Source: Patescibacteria group bacterium (GTDB lineage Bacteria > Patescibacteriota > Patescibacteriia > Patescibacteriales > WJLG01). From it: 64,000 nucleotides of DNA. Made by a program: the position numbers and the translations under genes. Within the stretch, counting starts at the first letter, position 1. Every line of letters begins with the position of its first letter. This document shows positions 11,977 to 28,071 of this stretch, in pieces. The notes beneath the pieces are model-generated. The model was not told where the DNA came from. It saw only the letters and a program-made list of their open reading frames with translations, and did no database searches. Where the stretch lies: assembly GCA_028716485.1 (NCBI GenBank), contig JAQUPS010000005.1, positions 3,666 to 67,665 on the forward strand, in the 5' to 3' direction.

Positions 11977-12005
11977 TTGACGCTGATTTTTTTTAGGTGT
12001 ATAAT
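11977..12005 (+). promoter_or_regulatory. sigma70 promoter of nrdR-nrdD-nrdG
   Basis: TTGACG (11977-11982), 17 nt, then TATAAT (12000-12005) preceded by TG. Confidence 0.65.
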
Positions 12006-12016
12006 ATAATTAGATA

Positions 12017-12064
12017 CCACAAGATATGGGGTTTGAACGTTGATTAAGCCACAAATTATTGATT
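12017..12064 (+). promoter_or_regulatory. tandem NrdR boxes
   Basis: CCACAAGATATGGGGT (12017-12032) and CCACAAATTATTGATT (12049-12064) match the NrdR-box consensus acaCwAtATaTwGtgt (as I recall it) at 12/16 and 11/16 positions. The boxes are 32 bp apart, immediately downstream of the promoter. Confidence 0.6.
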
Positions 12065-12269
12065 AAGTCAATTTCCCCACCTTCGCTCGCCGTAGCCTTG
12101 GCAAAGGCGAGTTTCATTAGAGATTGTGGCGAATGGCAAAGGTAAGATTTATAAAATTATAGCGAGCTCTTCGGTGGACACGACCAACAGGCTTTTATTA
12201 GCTGTAACCTTGGCGAAGGCAAGCTTCGCGGGACAAAGCCCATCTATTATCGTGGCTAATTAAATTTTT

Positions 12270-12740
12270 ATGATTTGCCCTATCTGCTATTTTGAAGATA
12301 CCAAGGTGATTGATTCCCGGGTGGCGTCCGACGGTCTTTCGATCAGGCGGAGAAGAGAGTGCGAAAAATGCGGTTTCCGCTTTTCCACTTTTGAAGAAAT
12401 GGAAATATTGGATTTGACAGTCGTTAAGCGCGACGGCCAGAAAGAAGCTTACAGCCGCGATAAATTGGTTTCCGGTTTGAAAAAAGCCTTGGAAAAACGG
12501 CCGATTGATGATGACGGTTTTAAAAAATTAGTCCATAATATCGAACGGGATATCCAGCAATTGAAAAAGAGCGAGGTGACATCCAGTGAAATCGGCGAAA
12601 TCGTGATGAAACACTTGAAAGAGACCGATGTGGTCGCCTATATCCGCTTTGCCTCGGTTTATGAATCATTCGAAGACGCGAAAGATTTCAAGGAAACTTT
12701 AAATAAGATATTAGAAGATAAGAAAAAAAGCAAGAAGTAA
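12270..12740 (+). CDS. nrdR: transcriptional repressor NrdR
   Basis: Zn-ribbon MICPICYFEDTKVIDSR...CEKCGFRFSTFE followed by an ATP-cone. Confidence 0.92.
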   Translation: MICPICYFEDTKVIDSRVASDGLSIRRRRECEKCGFRFSTFEEMEILDLTVVKRDGQKEAYSRDKLVSGLKKALEKRPIDDDGFKKLVHNIERDIQQLKKSEVTSSEIGEIVMKHLKETDVVAYIRFASVYESFEDAKDFKETLNKILEDKKKSKK

Positions 12741-12812: not shown

Positions 12813-14966
12813 ATGCCAAATATTATATCGCAAATTCGTAAGCGCTCGGGTGAAATCGTTGATTTTAACCGGGAAAAAATTACCGCCGCCGTCAAGAAAG
12901 CGGAAGAATCAGTCGGTATGGCTGATTCTGATTTGGCGGAAAAGCTTACCAATCAGGTCGTCGATAAGCTGTCCCGAAAATTCCATGCCCGCAGCATTCC
13001 GGCGGTCGAAGAAATCCAGGATGTGGTCGAAGAAACTTTGATTGAAAGCAAGCAGATCACTTTGGCCAAGGCGTTTATCCTTTATCGCGACCAGCACCGC
13101 CAGCTGCGCGACTTGAATACTAAAACCAACGACGAAAAATTGATGGAAGATTATCTCGGGCAGGCGGATTGGCGTTTGAAAGAAAACAGCAATATGAGTT
13201 TTTCCGTGCAGGGTTTGAATAATTATCTGGCTTCCTCGATTTCCGCCAAGTATTGGCTTAATAAATTGTATCCGGTCGAGATTCGCGACGCGCACATCAA
13301 CGCTGATCTGCATATTCATGATTTGGGGATGCTGGCGTCGTATTGCGCGGGCTGGAATTTAAAAGATCTTTTAATGCGTGGGTTTTCCGGCGTGGATGAG
13401 AAAACGCAATCCGGGCCGGCCAATCATTTCCGCAGCGCCTTGGGGCAATTGGTGAATTTTCTTTATACTATGCAAGGAGAATTGGCTGGCGCCTGCGCGG
13501 TTTCCAATTTTGACACTTACCTCGCGCCGTTTATCCGTTATGACGGCTTAACCAAGAAAGAAGTAAAACAAGCTTTGCAGGAATTCGTTTTCAATATGAA
13601 TGTGGCGACTCGCGTCGGTTTTCAGACGCCGTTTACCAATGTCACTTTGGATGTCAAACCGATCGGCACTTTGGCCGAGGAATGCGTGATCATCGGCGGG
13701 ATGGTTAAGCCGGAAAAATACAAGGATTTTCAGCCGGAAATAGATATTTTCAATGAAACATTCGCTTCGATAATGCTGGAAGGGGATTCCAAGCACCGGA
13801 TGTTCGCTTTCCCGATTCCGACTTACAATATTGATAAGACTTTTGAATGGGATCGTCCGTCATTGGCAGGAGTTTGGGAGATGACCGCCAAATATGGTAT
13901 TCCTTATTTTTCCAATTTTGTTAATTCCGATATGAAACCGGAAGACGCCCGCAGTATGTGCTGCCGCTTGCGCCTGGACAACCGCGAATTAAGAAAACGC
14001 GGCGGCGGATTGTTCGGCGCCAATCCCTTGACCGGATCAATCGGCGTAGTCACCATCAATCTGGCGCGCATCGGTTTCTTAGCCAAGGATAAAGAGGATT
14101 ATAAATTGCGCCTGGGCCATTTGATGGATTTGGCCAAAGAAAGTTTGGAAATAAAAAGAAAAGTTCTGGAAAGATTCACCGAAGCCGGACTTTATCCTTA
14201 TTCCAAATTTTATCTTTCCGATATCGTGGAAAGATTCGGCAAGTATTGGCAGAACCATTTTTCCACCATCGGCATCAATGGGATGAACGAATCGCTCTTG
14301 AATTTTATGAAGCGCGACATCGCTTCCGCCGAGGGCAAGGCTTTTGCCGTGGAAGTCCTTGATTTCATCCGGGAGCGATTGAAAAATTATCAGAACGAAA
14401 CCAATAATCTTTATAATCTGGAAGCGACGCCGGCCGAAGGAACCACTTATCGTTTTGCCAAGAAAGACAAAGAGATTTATCCCAATATTATCGTGGCCAA
14501 TGACGAAGCGGTGAAGAAAGGCGCGGATCCGTATTACACCAATTCCACGCACTTGCCGGTTAATTATACCAGCGATATTTTCGAGGCGCTGGAATTGCAG
14601 GATGAATTGCAAACCAAATATACCGGCGGCACGGTTTTGCACGGCTTCTTGGGCCAGAAAATAGATGATCCGGAAGCGGCCAAACGCCTGGTCAAGAAAA
14701 TAGTTTATAATTATCATTTGCCTTATTTCACCATCACCCCGACTTTTTCCATCTGTCCTAAACACGGTTATCTGGCCGGCGAGCATAAATATTGCCCCAA
14801 ATGCGACGAGGAAAACGGCTACCGAGAATTAGCGGCCGACGTGTCCGCCGAAGTCCCGCTCGGCGGGACGAAGGGGGGAGAAATGGTCGTGCGCCCAGTC
14901 GTAATTGAAGCAGTTGAAACCAGTCATAGCGGCAAGGAAAGGGATATTATTAACGCCATCGCTTAG
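12813..14966 (+). CDS. nrdD: anaerobic ribonucleoside-triphosphate reductase NrdD, lacking the glycyl-radical C-terminus
   Basis: ATP-cone N-terminus and class III RNR core (..NSDMKPEDARSMCCRLRL.., GGTVLHGFLG, Zn site ICPKHGY..YCPKC). After the Zn site the ORF runs into GC-hairpin-derived sequence and stops without the RVxGY/W glycyl-radical motif. Confidence 0.85.
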   Translation: MPNIISQIRKRSGEIVDFNREKITAAVKKAEESVGMADSDLAEKLTNQVVDKLSRKFHARSIPAVEEIQDVVEETLIESKQITLAKAFILYRDQHRQLRDLNTKTNDEKLMEDYLGQADWRLKENSNMSFSVQGLNNYLASSISAKYWLNKLYPVEIRDAHINADLHIHDLGMLASYCAGWNLKDLLMRGFSGVDEKTQSGPANHFRSALGQLVNFLYTMQGELAGACAVSNFDTYLAPFIRYDGLTKKEVKQALQEFVFNMNVATRVGFQTPFTNVTLDVKPIGTLAEECVIIGGMVKPEKYKDFQPEIDIFNETFASIMLEGDSKHRMFAFPIPTYNIDKTFEWDRPSLAGVWEMTAKYGIPYFSNFVNSDMKPEDARSMCCRLRLDNRELRKRGGGLFGANPLTGSIGVVTINLARIGFLAKDKEDYKLRLGHLMDLAKESLEIKRKVLERFTEAGLYPYSKFYLSDIVERFGKYWQNHFSTIGINGMNESLLNFMKRDIASAEGKAFAVEVLDFIRERLKNYQNETNNLYNLEATPAEGTTYRFAKKDKEIYPNIIVANDEAVKKGADPYYTNSTHLPVNYTSDIFEALELQDELQTKYTGGTVLHGFLGQKIDDPEAAKRLVKKIVYNYHLPYFTITPTFSICPKHGYLAGEHKYCPKCDEENGYRELAADVSAEVPLGGTKGGEMVVRPVVIEAVETSHSGKERDIINAIA

Positions 14967-15157
14967 GCCAATTTAAAGTTACCTTGCCTACCGGCAGGCA
15001 GGAAAATGAAAAATTAAAAATAAGAATTTTAAAATTAATAAACTAAATAAAAATATAAAAAAAAGAATTAAAAACGCCAAATTAGAAATTAAAAATTGCC
15101 CAAGCCTAATAAAATTTTTAACTTTTAATTTTTAACTTTTAATTTTTTAAAGGAGTT

Positions 15158-15301
15158 ATGAGCCCGATCAAAACAAAAAGACAGGAATGCATCATTTACA
15201 GCCGCGTCGTCGGCTGGCTGACGCCGGTAAAAAATTGGAACAAGGGCAAAAAAGCCGAGTTCGTCGACCGGAAGACTTTTGATGTGGATGAGAAGTTTTA
15301 A
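15158..15301 (+). CDS. stand-alone NrdD glycyl-radical domain (47 aa)
   Basis: MSPIKTKRQECIIYSRVVGWLTPVKNWNKGKKAEFVDRKTFDVDEKF matches the canonical NrdD C-terminus (YSRVxG[YW]..P...WN.GK..E...R). AGGAG lies 5 nt upstream of the ATG. It is absent from the ORF track because it is under 60 aa. Confidence 0.75.
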   Translation: MSPIKTKRQECIIYSRVVGWLTPVKNWNKGKKAEFVDRKTFDVDEKF

Positions 15302-15345
15302 CTAATTTCATGACCGGTTAGCTGGTTTCTAACCGGCCTATCGTT

Positions 15346-16086
15346 ATGAAAATCGGTGGTTTGGAAAAATTAAGCTTGATCGATTACCCGGGCGAGTTGT
15401 CAGCAGTTGTTTTTACTATCGGTTGCACGTTCCGCTGCCCGTTTTGCTATAATCCCATGCTTGTCCTGTCCGGTTCGGATAGGAGTGGAGATACTTTGCC
15501 GCGAGGCGAAGAAATAGATAAAGATCATACTCGGTTAAACGAGGATGATCTTTTTCTTTTTTTATCTCGCCGCCAAAATAAGCTGGACGCCGTGGTGATC
15601 ACCGGCGGCGAGCCGACCATGCACCAGGATTTGCCGGAGTTTATCCGGAAAATCAAAAAGCTTGGCTATAAAATAAAGCTCGACACCAACGGCACCAACC
15701 CGGCAATGTTAAAAAAAATAATTTCCGCCAATTTGATCGATTATCTGGCAATGGATATCAAAGCCGCTCCGGCCGATTATCCGCGCGCGACAGGCGTCAA
15801 ATTTGATTTTGAGAAAATCAAGCAAAGTGTTAAAATAATAATGGCGAGCAACTTGCCTTACGAATTCCGCACCACTTGCGTTCCCGGCTTCATCGATGCG
15901 GACGGCATTGCTAAAATAGGGGAGTTAATTAAAGGCGCGGACAAATGGTATTTGCAAAATTTTAAATCAGATGCGGAATTGATTGATAATAACCTGCGCG
16001 GCAAATCCGGGTTTACGGCCGCGGAAATGGAAACATTTGCCAGTATCGGTCGGAAATATGTAAAGAAATGCGAGGTGAGAGGATAA
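15346..16086 (+). CDS. nrdG: anaerobic RNR activating enzyme (radical SAM)
   Basis: CTFRCPFCYNP (CxxxCxxC) and VVITGGEPT. Confidence 0.88.
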   Translation: MKIGGLEKLSLIDYPGELSAVVFTIGCTFRCPFCYNPMLVLSGSDRSGDTLPRGEEIDKDHTRLNEDDLFLFLSRRQNKLDAVVITGGEPTMHQDLPEFIRKIKKLGYKIKLDTNGTNPAMLKKIISANLIDYLAMDIKAAPADYPRATGVKFDFEKIKQSVKIIMASNLPYEFRTTCVPGFIDADGIAKIGELIKGADKWYLQNFKSDAELIDNNLRGKSGFTAAEMETFASIGRKYVKKCEVRG

Positions 16087-16530: not shown

Positions 16531-17265
16531 ATGCCAAACGAAATAAAAATAGCAATTTTTAAGGGCAAAAAAATTAGAAAAATCATTCATCAAAATGAAT
16601 GGTGGTTTTCGGTTATTGATGTTTGCGAGGCGCTTACTGATAGTGTTGATGCCGGGGCGTATTGGCGGAAATTAAAACAAAGATTGTCAGAAGAAGGAAG
16701 TGAAGTCGTGACATTCTGTCACGGGTTGAAAATGAAAGCTCCTGACGGAAAAATGCGTGAAACCGATTGTGCCGATACAGAGGGAGTTTTTCGTATTATC
16801 CAGTCAATTCCTTCTCCCAAAGCCGAACCATTCAAGCGTTGGCTGGCAAAAGTCGGCTATGAACGAATTCAAGAAATTGCCATTCGAGAAGAATTAATGG
16901 ATGAATGGAATAAAAGAGGAGCCAAGGAACGAAAAGAGTATGAAATTTTGACAGCGGAAATTTCCAAAGCGACTTTTGGCTTGACGCCCAGCCAATATAA
17001 GAAACATAAAAATCTCAAAAGAGAAAATCTCCGCGATCATATGGATGATTTTGAACTGATTTTCTCCATGCTTGGAGAAAAGTCAACTACGGAAATTCAT
17101 CGCACGGAAAATTCTCAAGGCGTGCCAAAATTAAAAGCGGACGCTAAATCCGGAGGCGATATTGCCGGCGGTGCCAGAAAAAAACTTGAAAAACGACTGG
17201 GTCGTTCCGTTGTTTCCAAAAATAATTTTAAGCCGTTAGGCGATCGGAAAAAATTGAGCAAGTAA
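16531..17265 (+). CDS. BRO-N domain protein (phage antirepressor/DinD-like)
   Basis: IRKIIHQNEWWFSVIDVCEAL..., FRIIQSIPSPKAEPFKRWLAKVGYERIQEI. Confidence 0.65.
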   Translation: MPNEIKIAIFKGKKIRKIIHQNEWWFSVIDVCEALTDSVDAGAYWRKLKQRLSEEGSEVVTFCHGLKMKAPDGKMRETDCADTEGVFRIIQSIPSPKAEPFKRWLAKVGYERIQEIAIREELMDEWNKRGAKERKEYEILTAEISKATFGLTPSQYKKHKNLKRENLRDHMDDFELIFSMLGEKSTTEIHRTENSQGVPKLKADAKSGGDIAGGARKKLEKRLGRSVVSKNNFKPLGDRKKLSK

Positions 17266-24435: not shown

Positions 24436-27400
24436 ATGTTTGTCCATCTCCACAATCATACTCATTATTCTTTGCTCGACGGTCTGACCAAGATCGACGA
24501 GATGGTTAAGTATGCCAAGGAGCAGGGTTCGCCGGCCATCGCCATTACCGACCACGGCACGATGTATGGCGTGATCGAGTTTTATGAACGCTGCAAGAAA
24601 GAGGGGATTAAGCCGATCATCGGCGTGGAAACTTATCTGGCTCCCCGCGGCCGGACACTTAAGGAAACTGTGGAAGATCGCGCCAATCATCATCTTTTAT
24701 TGTTGGCTAAAAATAATGCAGGATATAAAAATCTGATCAAGCTGGTTTCGGCCGCGCATTTGGAAGGTTTTTATTATAAGCCTCGGATCGATTGGGAATT
24801 GCTGGAAAAATATCATGACGGCCTGATTGCCTGCACCGCTTGTTTGGGCGGAGAAATTCCGCACTTAATTGAGGCCGGACAAATCGACAAGGCGAGAAAA
24901 AGAATTTTGGAATACAACGAACTTTTCGGCCAGGGAAATTTTTTTCTGGAAATCCAGGACCATCCCAACCTGGAAGGCCAGGCCGAATGCAACGCGCAGA
25001 TGGTTAAATTTTCCCGCGAACTCGGTATTTCGCTGGTGGCTACCAATGATATTCATTATTTCCGCAAAGATGATGCCGAAGCGCAGGATATTTTATTATG
25101 TCTGCAGAACAAGAAAAAAGTCGAAGATGAAGATCGGATGAATATGATGGGCACGGATTTTTCCATGCGCTCCAATGAAGAAATGCTCGCCGCTTTCAAA
25201 GATATTCCGGAAGCAACGGCCAACACCTTGAAAATCGCCGAAATGTGCAATGTGGAAATCCCTTTGGGTCAGATTCAATTGCCTTATTTTCCCGTGCCGG
25301 CCGGTTTTGATGAAATCGGCTACTTAGAAAATTGGGCTCACGAGGGCTGCAAGAAGCGTTATGGAAAAACTTACGCGGAAATGGATAAAGCCAGGAAGGA
25401 TCGCATTGATTACGAAATTTCGGTAATCAAAAAAATGGGCTGGCCGTCATATTTTTTAATCGTTGCTGATTTTATCAATTGGGCCAAAGACTCGGGAATT
25501 ATCGTCGGGCCGGGCAGAGGTTCGGCTGCCGGTTCTTTGGTTTGCTATTTGATCGGCATCACTAATCTTGATCCGCTGGATTATGATCTGCTGTTTGAAA
25601 GATTCTTGAATCCGGAGCGCATTTCCATGCCCGATATCGATACGGATTTTGCCGATACCGGCCGCGACGCGGTAATCCGTTATGTGGAAGGAAAATACGG
25701 CAAGGATCATGTTTCGCAGATCATCACTTTCGGAACTATCGCCGCCCGCGCTTCGATGCGCGATGTCGGCCGCGTGCTGGATATGCCTTACGACTATTGC
25801 GATAAGCTGGCCAAGATGATTCCGCTGATGATGGATTTGTCCGAGACCTTGGAAACCGTCCAGGAATTCAAGGATATATATAATAAGGAAGCGGACGCGC
25901 GGAAAATCATCGATTATGCTTTGCGTTTGGAAGGCGTGGCGCGGCATGCCTCGACGCACGCCTGCGGAGTTTTGATCACCAAAGAGCCATTGACCGAATA
26001 CGTGCCGATCCAATACGCCTCGACTTCGGATTTGACCGTCGTGTCGCAATATTCTTTGCATCCGATCGAAGATTTGGGTTTGTTGAAAATGGATTTCTTG
26101 GGTTTGAAAAATTTGACCATCATAGAAGCGGCTTTGAAAATCATCAAACGGACGCGCGGCGTGGAATTGAAAATGGATGAGTTTCCGCTGGACGATAAAA
26201 CCGCTTATAAATTATTCCAGAACGGCGAAACCACCGGCGTGTTCCAATTCGAATCTTCGGGAATGAAAAGATATTTGAAAGAATTGAAACCGACCGTTTT
26301 TGAAGATATTATTGCCATGGTCGCGTTGTATCGGCCTGGTCCGATGGAGTGGATCCCTGATTATATTTCAGGCAAGCATGGGCGAAAACGGGTGCAATAT
26401 CTGCATCCGGTCTTAAAGCCGATTTTGGACAAGACTTACGGCGTGGCGATTTATCAGGAACAGGTGATGCAGATTGCCCGCGATCTGGCTGGCTTCACGA
26501 TGGGCGAAGCGGACGTCTTGCGCAAAGCCGTGGGCAAAAAAATCGCCAAGCTATTGGCCGAGCAGAAAGAAAAATTCGTCGAAGGCTGCATGAAAAAAGG
26601 CGTGCCCAAGGAATTGGGCGAGCAAGTTTTTTCTTTCATCGAACCGTTCGCCGGCTACGGCTTCAACCGGTCGCACGCCGCCTGCTACGCGATGATCGGT
26701 TATCAAACCGCTTATCTGAAAGCTCATTACCCGGCGGAATTTATGGCCGCGCTCTTAACCTCGGATCAGCAGGATATCGATCGCATCGCTATTGAAATCG
26801 AAGAATGCCGCAATATGGGGATCAAAGTTTTGTCGCCGGACATCAATGAATCATTCGCATCATTCACGGTTGTTAAAGATGAAAAAACCGGCGAAGAATT
26901 CATCCGCTTCGGATTGAATGCGGTTAAAAATGTCGGCGAGCATATTGTTGAAGTTGTCATTGAAGAAAGAAAAACTAACGGCAGATATAAAGATATTTTT
27001 GATCTGCTGGAAAGAATTGTTGACCGGGATATGAATAAAAAATCGCTGGAATCTTTAGCTAAATGCGGCGCGCTTGACCAGTTCAACGACCGCGGTTTGC
27101 TTTTAGCAAATATGGAAGCGCTGCTGGAATTCAACAAAGAAGTCAGCCGCAACAAAGATTCCAAACAGGTGAGCCTGTTCGGCAATCCGTCCGGCACAGC
27201 GCCCGGCCGGATTAAATTAGATAAATCAGCGACCGTAACGCAACAGGAAAAATTATCCTGGGAAAAAGAATTGCTCGGCCTTTATGTCAGCGCTCATCCG
27301 TTCAATGATTTCAAGAAACATCTGGATAATTTTATCGTTCCGATTGCCGGCTTGTCTTCGCATTTGAACGAAGACGCGGTCAGGACGGCCGGCGTCATCA

Positions 27401-28071
27401 CCGTGGTCAAAAAAATAATCACCCGCAGCAACAAGCCGATGCTGTTCGTCAAGATTGAAGACGCGGCCGCTTCCACCGAGCTGCTGGTTTTTCCTAATCT
27501 TTATGAAACGACCGCCGAACTCTGGCAGCCGGGAAAAGTTATTTTGGCGCAGGGAAAAATTTCCGACAAAGATCAGGAAGTTAAATTATTAGTGGACAAA
27601 GCGGCTGTGTTGACGCTGGATAATTTGGCCGCTAACATCGATTCATTCAAAAAAATCGAAGTGAATAATCGGAAACAATTCAACGGCAACGGCAATAATT
27701 ATTTTCGTCGGCCGGAATCCTCCTTCGTCCCGCCGAGCGGGACTGCGGGGGACAAGCCCCCCTTCGCTACGGCTTCGGGGGACAAGCCCCCCTTCGCTAC
27801 GGCTTCGGGGGACAAGCCCGCGCCAATCATTCAGACCGGTCCGCCGCCGCTTAAATTATTTTTCAAAAAAGATTTATCCGCTGAACAATCAGCCTTGCTT
27901 AAACAAATTTTGGCTCAGGCGTCCGGCAGCAGCCGAGTCCTTATTAAAATCATCAGAAACGGCGCGCCGGTTATCATTGAAGGAGGCTTCCGCGTCAATA
28001 ATAATCTCAATCTGGTGAACCAGATTAAAAAAGAATTTTCGGGCTCAATCGAAGTTGTAGACGCCAAGTAG
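24436..28071 (+). CDS. dnaE: DNA polymerase III alpha subunit
   Basis: PHP domain MFVHLHNHTHYSLLDG, PDIDTDF, and the ..GYGFNRSHAACYA.. region. 1211 aa. Confidence 0.93.
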   Translation: MFVHLHNHTHYSLLDGLTKIDEMVKYAKEQGSPAIAITDHGTMYGVIEFYERCKKEGIKPIIGVETYLAPRGRTLKETVEDRANHHLLLLAKNNAGYKNLIKLVSAAHLEGFYYKPRIDWELLEKYHDGLIACTACLGGEIPHLIEAGQIDKARKRILEYNELFGQGNFFLEIQDHPNLEGQAECNAQMVKFSRELGISLVATNDIHYFRKDDAEAQDILLCLQNKKKVEDEDRMNMMGTDFSMRSNEEMLAAFKDIPEATANTLKIAEMCNVEIPLGQIQLPYFPVPAGFDEIGYLENWAHEGCKKRYGKTYAEMDKARKDRIDYEISVIKKMGWPSYFLIVADFINWAKDSGIIVGPGRGSAAGSLVCYLIGITNLDPLDYDLLFERFLNPERISMPDIDTDFADTGRDAVIRYVEGKYGKDHVSQIITFGTIAARASMRDVGRVLDMPYDYCDKLAKMIPLMMDLSETLETVQEFKDIYNKEADARKIIDYALRLEGVARHASTHACGVLITKEPLTEYVPIQYASTSDLTVVSQYSLHPIEDLGLLKMDFLGLKNLTIIEAALKIIKRTRGVELKMDEFPLDDKTAYKLFQNGETTGVFQFESSGMKRYLKELKPTVFEDIIAMVALYRPGPMEWIPDYISGKHGRKRVQYLHPVLKPILDKTYGVAIYQEQVMQIARDLAGFTMGEADVLRKAVGKKIAKLLAEQKEKFVEGCMKKGVPKELGEQVFSFIEPFAGYGFNRSHAACYAMIGYQTAYLKAHYPAEFMAALLTSDQQDIDRIAIEIEECRNMGIKVLSPDINESFASFTVVKDEKTGEEFIRFGLNAVKNVGEHIVEVVIEERKTNGRYKDIFDLLERIVDRDMNKKSLESLAKCGALDQFNDRGLLLANMEALLEFNKEVSRNKDSKQVSLFGNPSGTAPGRIKLDKSATVTQQEKLSWEKELLGLYVSAHPFNDFKKHLDNFIVPIAGLSSHLNEDAVRTAGVITVVKKIITRSNKPMLFVKIEDAAASTELLVFPNLYETTAELWQPGKVILAQGKISDKDQEVKLLVDKAAVLTLDNLAANIDSFKKIEVNNRKQFNGNGNNYFRRPESSFVPPSGTAGDKPPFATASGDKPPFATASGDKPAPIIQTGPPPLKLFFKKDLSAEQSALLKQILAQASGSSRVLIKIIRNGAPVIIEGGFRVNNNLNLVNQIKKEFSGSIEVVDAK
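27747..27819 (+). repeat. 30-nt GC-rich tandem repeat (2.4 copies) inside dnaE
   Basis: Unit GGGGGACAAGCCCCCCTTCGCTACGGCTTC, in frame, translated as GDKPPFATAS x2.4. Confidence 0.9.

Follow-up and report, generated by a model that had tools for sequence, protein, structure and literature searches.

Anatomy of the nrdD locus

A locus for class III (anaerobic) ribonucleotide reductase (RNR) lies in a 64,000-nucleotide stretch of DNA from a Patescibacteria group bacterium (GenBank assembly GCA_028716485.1, contig JAQUPS010000005.1, positions 3,666 to 67,665 of the forward strand), the whole of which is called the window in the following. The reductase gene nrdD is divided here into a large open reading frame (ORF) of 717 amino acids and a separate ORF of 47 amino acids, the mini-ORF, whose product is called the mini; the two are in different reading frames (Table 1). 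An earlier note on this DNA, made from the letters alone, had described an NrdD ORF with an ATP-cone, a catalytic core and a Zn site that stops at 14966 and has no glycyl-radical motif, and Pfam and the sequence agree with this description. The ATP-cone matches residues 7-96 and PF13597 NRDD matches residues 124-668 (E = 2.8e-178); the motif RVxG[YWF] is absent from the 717-residue ORF, and RVVGW is present on the 47-residue ORF.

The NRDD profile has 562 positions, of which 1-531 are covered by the large ORF and 531-562 by the mini-ORF, so that the two matches abut exactly; the mini-ORF is the NrdD C-terminus, as had been proposed. Alignment of both ORFs to full-length NrdD, which the earlier note had suggested, was carried out with a virtual fusion of the two products. 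It was found to be collinear with residues 551-644 of Thermotoga maritima NrdD (...CPVCGKA--KVDEYMRIVGYLVPV...), and no conserved NrdD position within that alignment was lost at the junction. The break lies between the Zn ribbon and the strand leading up to the radical glycine, which is Gly19 of the mini. Hence, of the glycyl-radical domain (GRD) that was thought to be encoded separately, the glycine loop and the C-terminal segment are indeed on their own ORF, but the Zn-ribbon half of the domain stays on the large one. After its Zn site (ICPKH...YCPKC) the large ORF continues into a tail of 49 amino acids, closed by the TAG at 14964-14966.

The description of the rest of the locus was accurate as well, with an AT-rich spacer of 191 nt (about 190 nt had been given) that holds a palindrome at 14982-15002, and an intact nrdG with its Radical_SAM domain and the motif CTFRCPFC. 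Sequence matches of the large ORF in the PDB were to NrdD only. The mini matched PF13597 NRDD alone at E <= 0.1, and no match was obtained to Gly_radical (PF01228), the C-terminus of pyruvate formate-lyase (PFL). No second nrdD was found within the 64-kb window. The order nrdR, large nrdD, mini, nrdG was also found in the related loci L001, L003 and L005.

Table 1. Features of the nrdD locus, numbered from the first letter of the window
Feature	Position	Strand	Description
nrdR	12270..12740	+	156 aa, RNR transcriptional repressor; Pfam Zn_ribbon_NrdR and ATP-cone; first gene of the conserved order
nrdD large subunit	12813..14966	+	717 aa; ATP-cone, barrel with MCCR finger loop, Zn ribbon, variable tail
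Zn-site codons C648-P-K-H651 ... C661-P-K-C664	14754..14804	+	from sequence; aligned to the CxxxH..CPVC site of T. maritima NrdD; last conserved part of the large chain, directly before the break
Variable C-terminal tail of large subunit, aa 669-717 (49 aa)	14817..14963	+	predicted disordered; end is HSGKERDIINAIA
GC-rich hairpin CCGCCGAAGTCCCGCTCGGCGGGAC in tail-coding region	14845..14869	+	includes window-specific in-frame 9-nt insertion
AT-rich intergenic spacer, 191 nt	14967..15157	+	holds 21-nt palindrome (14982-15002) and SD-like AGGAG (15151-15155)
nrdD mini subunit, 47 aa	15158..15301	+	glycyl-radical loop and C-terminal segment; Gly19 codon 15212-15214 in YSRVVGW
Short hairpin CCGGTTAG-CTGGTTT-CTAACCGG	15314..15336	+	between mini-ORF stop and nrdG start; from sequence
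nrdG, radical-SAM activase	15346..16086	+	246 aa; Pfam Radical_SAM and Fer4_12; CxxxCxxC motif GCTFRCPFC
aa, amino acids; SD, Shine-Dalgarno.

Conservation of the split

Conservation was studied in the 120 closest relatives of the large chain, in 82 clusters of minis and in one genome per GTDB species, and 85 loci could be analysed. None of the 120 large-chain relatives (71-91% identity, 675-742 aa) contains RVxG[YWF], and all of them end soon after CPKCDEE.GY. A database search with the 47-residue protein returned the 82 clusters, every one of them free-standing, 44-63 aa long and 65-91% identical, mostly from metagenome-assembled genomes (MAGs) of Patescibacteria. A relative of the mini is encoded in 280 GTDB species genomes, with one genome scanned per species, and 80 of these loci were fetched; many of the records are labelled Falkowbacteria or Patescibacteria group. 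Database pipelines already give such minis the label 'anaerobic ribonucleoside-triphosphate reductase'.

In all 85 loci, the large ORF stops 9-59 aa past the Zn site and the mini starts with an ATG at the same place, 13 codons before YSRVVGW, with an in-frame stop 1-27 codons upstream of that ATG. The N-terminus of the mini is likewise the same throughout, reading M[S/A/T]P and then ..RQEC..YSRVVGW. The closest locus, L008 from a Falkowbacteria MAG, encodes a large chain that is 91% identical to that of the window. A comparison of contiguous and split nrdD in related genomes had been recommended in the earlier note; it gave the split form in 85 of 85 loci, and the closest fused forms had 56-60% identity.

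MAG assemblies of AT-rich regions can contain errors, and a sequencing or gene-calling error that made the stop and the spacer, an assembly artefact of the kind also raised in that note, has to be weighed for this reason. Independent projects and assemblers gave the same architecture in 85 loci, the closed chromosomes CP066698.1 and OW818634.1 among them, and this replication excludes an artefact.

Selection and conserved residues

The coding sequences of 80 distinct minis were compared, and their synonymous sites were found to be saturated (median proportion of synonymous differences, pS, 0.81; median of the nonsynonymous proportion, pN, 0.128). In the 205 unsaturated pairs, the median ratio of nonsynonymous to synonymous substitution (dN/dS) is 0.089. 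Judged by this ratio, the mini-ORF is under strong purifying selection, a point on which the earlier note had called for data. Residues R8, C11, R16, G19, P23, N28, G30, K31, E34 and R38 are invariant in 55 minis. In 17 diverse members of the split clade, the large chain shows no variation at N125/N127, C178, M382-C383-C384-R385, E537, C648, H651, C661 and C664; the NxN flap reads ENSNMS (N125, N127) and the finger loop SMCCRLRL (C383/C384), where MCCR is the double-cysteine motif class (PMC9669993). By these comparisons the split is ancient and both of its parts are under constraint.

In another reading both pieces are real but form no RNR, the large chain having lost its radical chemistry or changed its function, and the mini working by itself, as a regulator, say, or a decoy substrate for NrdG. 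No role is assigned to the tail motif ERDIINAIA or to the tails with Cys pairs, which would agree with such a change. The positions that are conserved speak otherwise: the large chain shows no variation in its MCCR finger loop, its NxN flap, its barrel cysteine, its active-site Glu or its Zn ligands, the glycine-loop residues R, G, N, G, K, E and R are nearly invariant across minis and fused NrdDs, and the linkage nrdR-nrdD-mini-nrdG is kept. A function other than that of an RNR is accordingly considered unlikely.

Tail, spacer and repeat insertions

The earlier note, which had described the tail as built from GC hairpins, had left room for a second reading, in which nrdD was recently inactivated by repeat insertion. 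Local GC- or AT-rich repeats would then have broken the gene, and the 47-residue ORF would be a decaying remnant. Repeats are certainly found here. A second copy of the hairpin at 14845-14869, differing by 2 mismatches, is located within dnaE (27727-27751), where none is expected by chance, and the palindrome in the spacer is a recent 21-nt insertion (14982-15002) that is unique in the window. When the DNA was aligned with that of the closest relatives, L008 and L001, it was found, however, that the hairpin is completed by a recent 9-nt in-frame insertion in the tail, that both relatives are free of the 9-nt and the 21-nt insertion, and that both are split identically; the GC hairpins therefore did not cause the split. 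Since the split is also common to all 85 loci and to the 120 closest homologues, and the dN/dS of the mini is about 0.09 with saturated synonymous sites, recent inactivation is regarded as refuted.

The description of the tail as a product of hairpins had to be given up too. The tail is ancestral and variable, and its end, HSGKERDIINAIA at 14925-14963, is conserved at the protein level, with synonymous changes in the DNA; only the 9-nt insertion is specific to the window. Among 205 large-chain tails, 43, all of them long (36-69 aa), end in E[RK]xIIxxIA, and the window belongs to this long-tail subclade. That the tail might be a decayed duplicate of the radical loop was ruled out, as a search of the 205 tails with a hidden Markov model (HMM) of the mini-ORF found no similarity (best E = 1.4); a pairing of the tail GY with RVVGY by MAFFT was an alignment artefact.

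Some other tails of the family end in cysteines. At least two Cys occur in the last 10 residues of 34 of the 205 tails (EDCKTC, ACTDC, NPACC, SCCES; seen in P0109-P0195 and in L014, L016, L020, L021, L028-L031, L040, L067 and L072), and 13 of the 85 minis end in Cys pairs (NSCC, DCGC, GCGSCGC; L007, L009, L011, L017, L021, L025, L028-L031 and L040 among the loci). These ends recall the C-terminal redox-shuttle cysteines of class I and class II RNRs. The tail and the mini of the window have no terminal Cys pairs.

The dnaE ORF (24436-28071, minus strand) contains, at 27660-27820, three tandem 30-nt repeats (GGGGCTTGTCCCCCGAAGCCGTAGCGAAGG) and the hairpin GTCCCGCTCGGCGGGAC, translated as ..SGTAGDKPPFATASGDKPPFATASGDKP.., and CGAAGG/CCTTCG-rich sequence akin to the dnaE and nrdD elements is also present at 12040-12260, upstream of nrdR. 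The in-frame, GC-rich palindromic and tandem elements of the window resemble the Rickettsia-type palindromic elements, which insert into genes.

Probable separate translation of the two ORFs

A single polypeptide could still be made from this locus by a self-splicing intron, by an intein or split intein, or by recoding in the form of a programmed frameshift, stop-codon readthrough or ribosomal bypassing. Group I introns or homing endonucleases are a frequent interruption of phage nrdD (PMC3653736), and many relatives of the present protein carry intein-like insertions elsewhere in the chain. The spacers are difficult to reconcile with any of these routes. Across the 85 loci they measure 11-249 nt (median 85) at 0-39% GC, they are low-complexity AT sequence that cannot be aligned, and the frame offset between large ORF and mini is 0, 1 or 2 in 32, 30 and 23 loci, i.e., about equally often. 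RNA splicing, to which the earlier note had drawn attention, is excluded by spacers as short as 11 nt and by the even frame offsets, together with the RNA results that follow.

The spacer of the window itself has 13-21% GC (13-15% over 15000-15149). An Rfam scan of 14500-15600 by E-value gave no family, also at E <= 10, and a scan of five long-spacer loci at the gathering threshold gave nothing; the spacer folds no better than its shuffles (z = -1.5), and a consensus scan of the spacer for promoters and terminators did not rise above shuffle expectation. The invariant ATG and the conserved N-terminus MSP..RQEC argue against a single chain as well. With tails down to 9 aa and some 8 residues added at the N-terminus, there is too little sequence for the halves of a split intein, and in two phage-like loci described below (L087 and L092) the parts are separated by other genes. 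A single polypeptide is thus considered very improbable.

Structure model

For the AlphaFold2 (AF2) prediction the large and mini chains were concatenated, and the alignment comprised 5 large, 40 fused and 40 mini sequences; the minis were misplaced where large chains with tails made up most of an alignment. The joined chains gave a predicted local distance difference test score (pLDDT) of 89.1 and a predicted template modelling score (pTM) of 0.83, and a run without alignment gave a pLDDT of 34. The barrel is confident and the mini part (residues 721-764) has a pLDDT of 81-95. Residues 678-720, which comprise the tail and the first residues of the mini, fall below 50 and are predicted to be disordered. 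The model matches class III RNR structures only and is best taken as a consistency check, not as independent proof of docking.

A proposed two-chain class III RNR

With the anatomy of the locus, its conservation, the selection on it and the exclusion of splicing and recoding established, it is probable that the locus encodes an obligate class III RNR made of two separately translated polypeptides, of which the radical peptide is activated by NrdG. This corresponds to the two-polypeptide reading of the earlier note, which the comparative data strongly favour (a split in hundreds of genomes, purifying selection). Selection on both parts and the AF2 model point to both chains being required and assembling into an active enzyme, and the assembly would be non-covalent. 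The mini would be obligatory because the large chain has no radical domain of its own.

In the proposed enzyme, the 717-residue chain would contribute the ATP-cone for allosteric control, a barrel of ten strands with its MCCR thiyl-radical finger loop, and the Zn ribbon. From the 47-residue chain would come the beta-hairpin that bears the radical Gly19, together with the C-terminal segment, which is usually packed against the barrel. NrdG would use S-adenosylmethionine to abstract a hydrogen atom from Gly19, the peptide being either free or already docked. The glycine loop would then sit in the barrel beside the finger-loop cysteine, and nucleotide reduction would proceed as in single-chain NrdD. 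Such a mechanism is plausible because the glycine-loop region is highly mobile even where it is tethered, in single-chain NrdD (PMC11226230), and because the free glycyl-radical protein YfiD can be activated and serve the core of a glycyl-radical enzyme (GRE), PFL (PMC8683613).

Two benefits of the arrangement may be suggested, both speculative. One is that the C-terminus of the large chain would be free to carry other tails, and in other subclades some tails do end in Cys pairs. The other concerns oxygen, which cleaves the backbone at the glycyl radical; after such damage 47 residues would have to be replaced, and not about 760. A more far-reaching version, in which the mini is an exchangeable 5-kDa cartridge that NrdG charges as free peptide and that plugs into the barrel, is sacrificed to oxygen and is swapped without resynthesis of the 80-kDa core, is put forward tentatively, as a possibility about which we remain rather doubtful.

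Several points weigh against the two-chain enzyme. For every member of the family, we infer two-chain function from the genes. Another RNR in these genomes could make the split enzyme dispensable; the check for a second one covered the 64-kb window. No affinity-enhancing feature was identified in the 47-residue peptide, which, being untethered, must find and hold its partner. The docking seen in the AF2 model is not independent, because the chains were joined and fused homologues were part of the alignment. Finally, an SD-like motif lies upstream of the mini in 10 of the 85 loci, and in the window the AGGAG reported earlier is present but ends just 2 nt, not 5 nt, from the mini ATG. The scarcity of such motifs is weak evidence either way, because the other nrd genes in the window also have no SD sequence.

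Comparison with known systems

GREs are described as single chains, in which the C-terminal loop swings out to the activase and back in for catalysis. The single-chain NrdDs and their NrdG (T. maritima, 4COI/4U3E; Prevotella copri, 8P23; phage T4, 1H79) have the same fold, domain order and adjacent nrdG as the present locus, and share with it the ATP-cone, the barrel, the MCCR-type finger loop, the Zn ribbon, the RVxG-aromatic motif and WN.GK..E..R. They differ in that the chain is cut here between the Zn ribbon and the pre-glycine strand; the large chain has gained a tail of 9-59 aa, and the mini has gained its own ATG and the N-terminus MSPIKTKRQ. Moreover, fused NrdDs read GY..RP where the Patescibacteria split clade reads GW..TP. 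Among all the NrdD features that were compared, the locus departs from the single-chain enzymes in one alone, its glycine and its barrel being on different chains. The GRD as defined in the P. copri structure paper takes in the Zn site as well as the glycine loop and C-terminal tail (PMC11226230); here the Zn site stays on the large chain, and just the loop and the C-terminal segment are separate.

The mini had been compared with GrcA/YfiD in the earlier note, and the comparison holds only in part. GrcA is likewise a small free-standing glycyl-radical-loop protein; it is activated by the cognate radical-SAM activase and works when docked on a GRE core (PMC8683613), and for the mini such activation and docking are predicted. 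However, GrcA is a PFL homologue of 127 aa that backs up an enzyme with its own radical domain, whereas the mini is an NrdD homologue of 47 aa and provides the only radical domain available. According to a GRE review of June 2026, the formate lyases alone among the GRE classes have spare-part proteins that are known (PMC13450708).

Among RNRs, the class II NrdJa/NrdJb of Pseudomonas aeruginosa are also encoded by two adjacent genes with the C-terminal module on a second polypeptide, and both are required there (PMC4520616). That enzyme differs in being B12-dependent and in that NrdJb is a reductive dithiol-exchange module and not a radical site; it was described as a unique split RNR in a free-living organism (PMC4520616). 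As in NrdJa/NrdJb and in NrdA-a/-b of phage Aeh1, the two ORFs of the present locus are collinear with a single-gene homologue, and each has its own start and stop. Phage RNR genes in pieces are known, mostly through introns, inteins or homing endonucleases (PMC3653736); examples are the group I intron in T4 nrdD, the split of nrdA-a/nrdA-b by mobE in the Aeromonas phage Aeh1 and the fragmented nrdD of phiAS4. In contrast to these, the window and the 85 loci have no intron, intein or endonuclease, and their break point has a fixed position, is conserved in a large clade of bacteria and sets the radical loop apart. A search of the full-text literature, in which subscription-only papers were not covered, brought up no description of a class III RNR that is split.

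If the two-chain enzyme is real, it would offer a clean system for the study of activation, docking and radical transfer, as the peptide can be labelled, mutated and titrated separately. It would extend the spare-part idea from PFL to RNR and would be a second case, and a far more widespread one, of an RNR that is split in cellular organisms. An annotation pipeline with an RNR filter based on length or on the glycine motif will report these enzymes of the candidate phyla radiation (CPR) as truncated or overlook the 47-residue gene, which affects metabolic reconstructions of Patescibacteria.

Fused relatives and other architectures

At the level of 50% clusters, the closest fused NrdDs are 56-60% identical and read ..CPKC-(3-5 aa)-CEVYSRVVGYLRPV.., so that the break replaces a linker of only 3-5 residues. 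The fused forms carry a residue equivalent to the invariant Cys11 of the mini, which is therefore ancestral. Two more distant arrangements keep the glycine loop on a separate gene and have large chains without it. In L087, a phage-like relative (P0264, 50% identity), the order is large gene, DUF7487 gene, nrdG and a mini of 61 aa (HMM E = 1.4e-17). In L092 (P0244, which carries an intein), a mini of 50 aa lies 2.4 kb upstream of the large gene in a phage-like context, with six small genes between them. For P0345 and P0312 (L089 and L090), no mini gene was found within the available flank; the contigs may be truncated or the mini may lie farther off. In a rough neighbour-joining tree of split and fused NrdDs, without support values, L087 and L092 are placed in a clade apart from that of the window, with fused forms between the two. 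On this tree the site would have been split independently at least twice, once in the Patescibacteria clade and once in the phage-like clade.

The DUF7487 protein of L087 (4616-5677, 353 aa) lies between the large nrdD piece and nrdG; ..KYG(V/A).N.. units recur in it, and its C-terminal segment is endonuclease-like. This protein is possibly a homing endonuclease of the free-standing kind and would then hint at how such splits could arise; a homing-endonuclease-like gene directly after the large nrdD piece is a feature that L087 shares with the phage cases mentioned above. Many of the relatives P0203-P0352 are 850-1880 aa long and match the query in 2-4 stretches, with breaks that recur near query positions 172, 222, 270, 332, 384 (next to the MCCR finger loop) and 545. 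The pattern looks like a heavy load of inteins; Pfam matches to Intein_splicing and LAGLIDADG are recorded for P0244 and P0345.

The archaeal virus ANMV-1 (KP703175.1; L094/L095) encodes a free-standing protein of 144 aa (AJP62049.1, record positions 25525-25959) with an NrdD-type Zn ribbon (CHDCG...CPKC) and a glycine loop (TCEMYSRIVGYLRPVNQWNKGK), and an NrdD core was not found anywhere in the 38-kb record. On its sequence, this protein is a candidate spare part of a class III RNR. The phage record MT835493.1 (L093; 2033-4441 and 4445-5353) has a fused NrdD that runs past the glycine loop into a DTCCGE Cys pair and a thioredoxin/NrdH-like domain (TCPNCKMAK), with a thioredoxin-reductase-like gene after it; P0238, P0247, P0256, P0274, P0280 and P0297 end in similar TCPNC redoxin domains.

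Regulatory signals and neighbouring genes

The NrdR box ACACWATATATWGTGT has no match within 3 mismatches anywhere in the window. A near-consensus sigma-70 promoter (TTGACG-17 nt-TATAAT with an upstream TG) lies at about 11977-12009, some 240 nt upstream of nrdR, and is followed near 12016 (to 12035) by ACCACAAGATATGGGGT, a weak match to the NrdR-box consensus (12/16) made out by eye. The short hairpin between the mini-ORF and nrdG has 8 bp, an N7 loop and no T-tract and was not called as a terminator; it is also present in L001 (4151-4192). Directly downstream of the nrd operon, a BRO-N domain protein of 244 aa is encoded at 16531-17265. Proteins with this domain are typical of phages and mobile elements. 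In the relatives this place is taken by other genes, NUDIX and dnaE in the case of L001.

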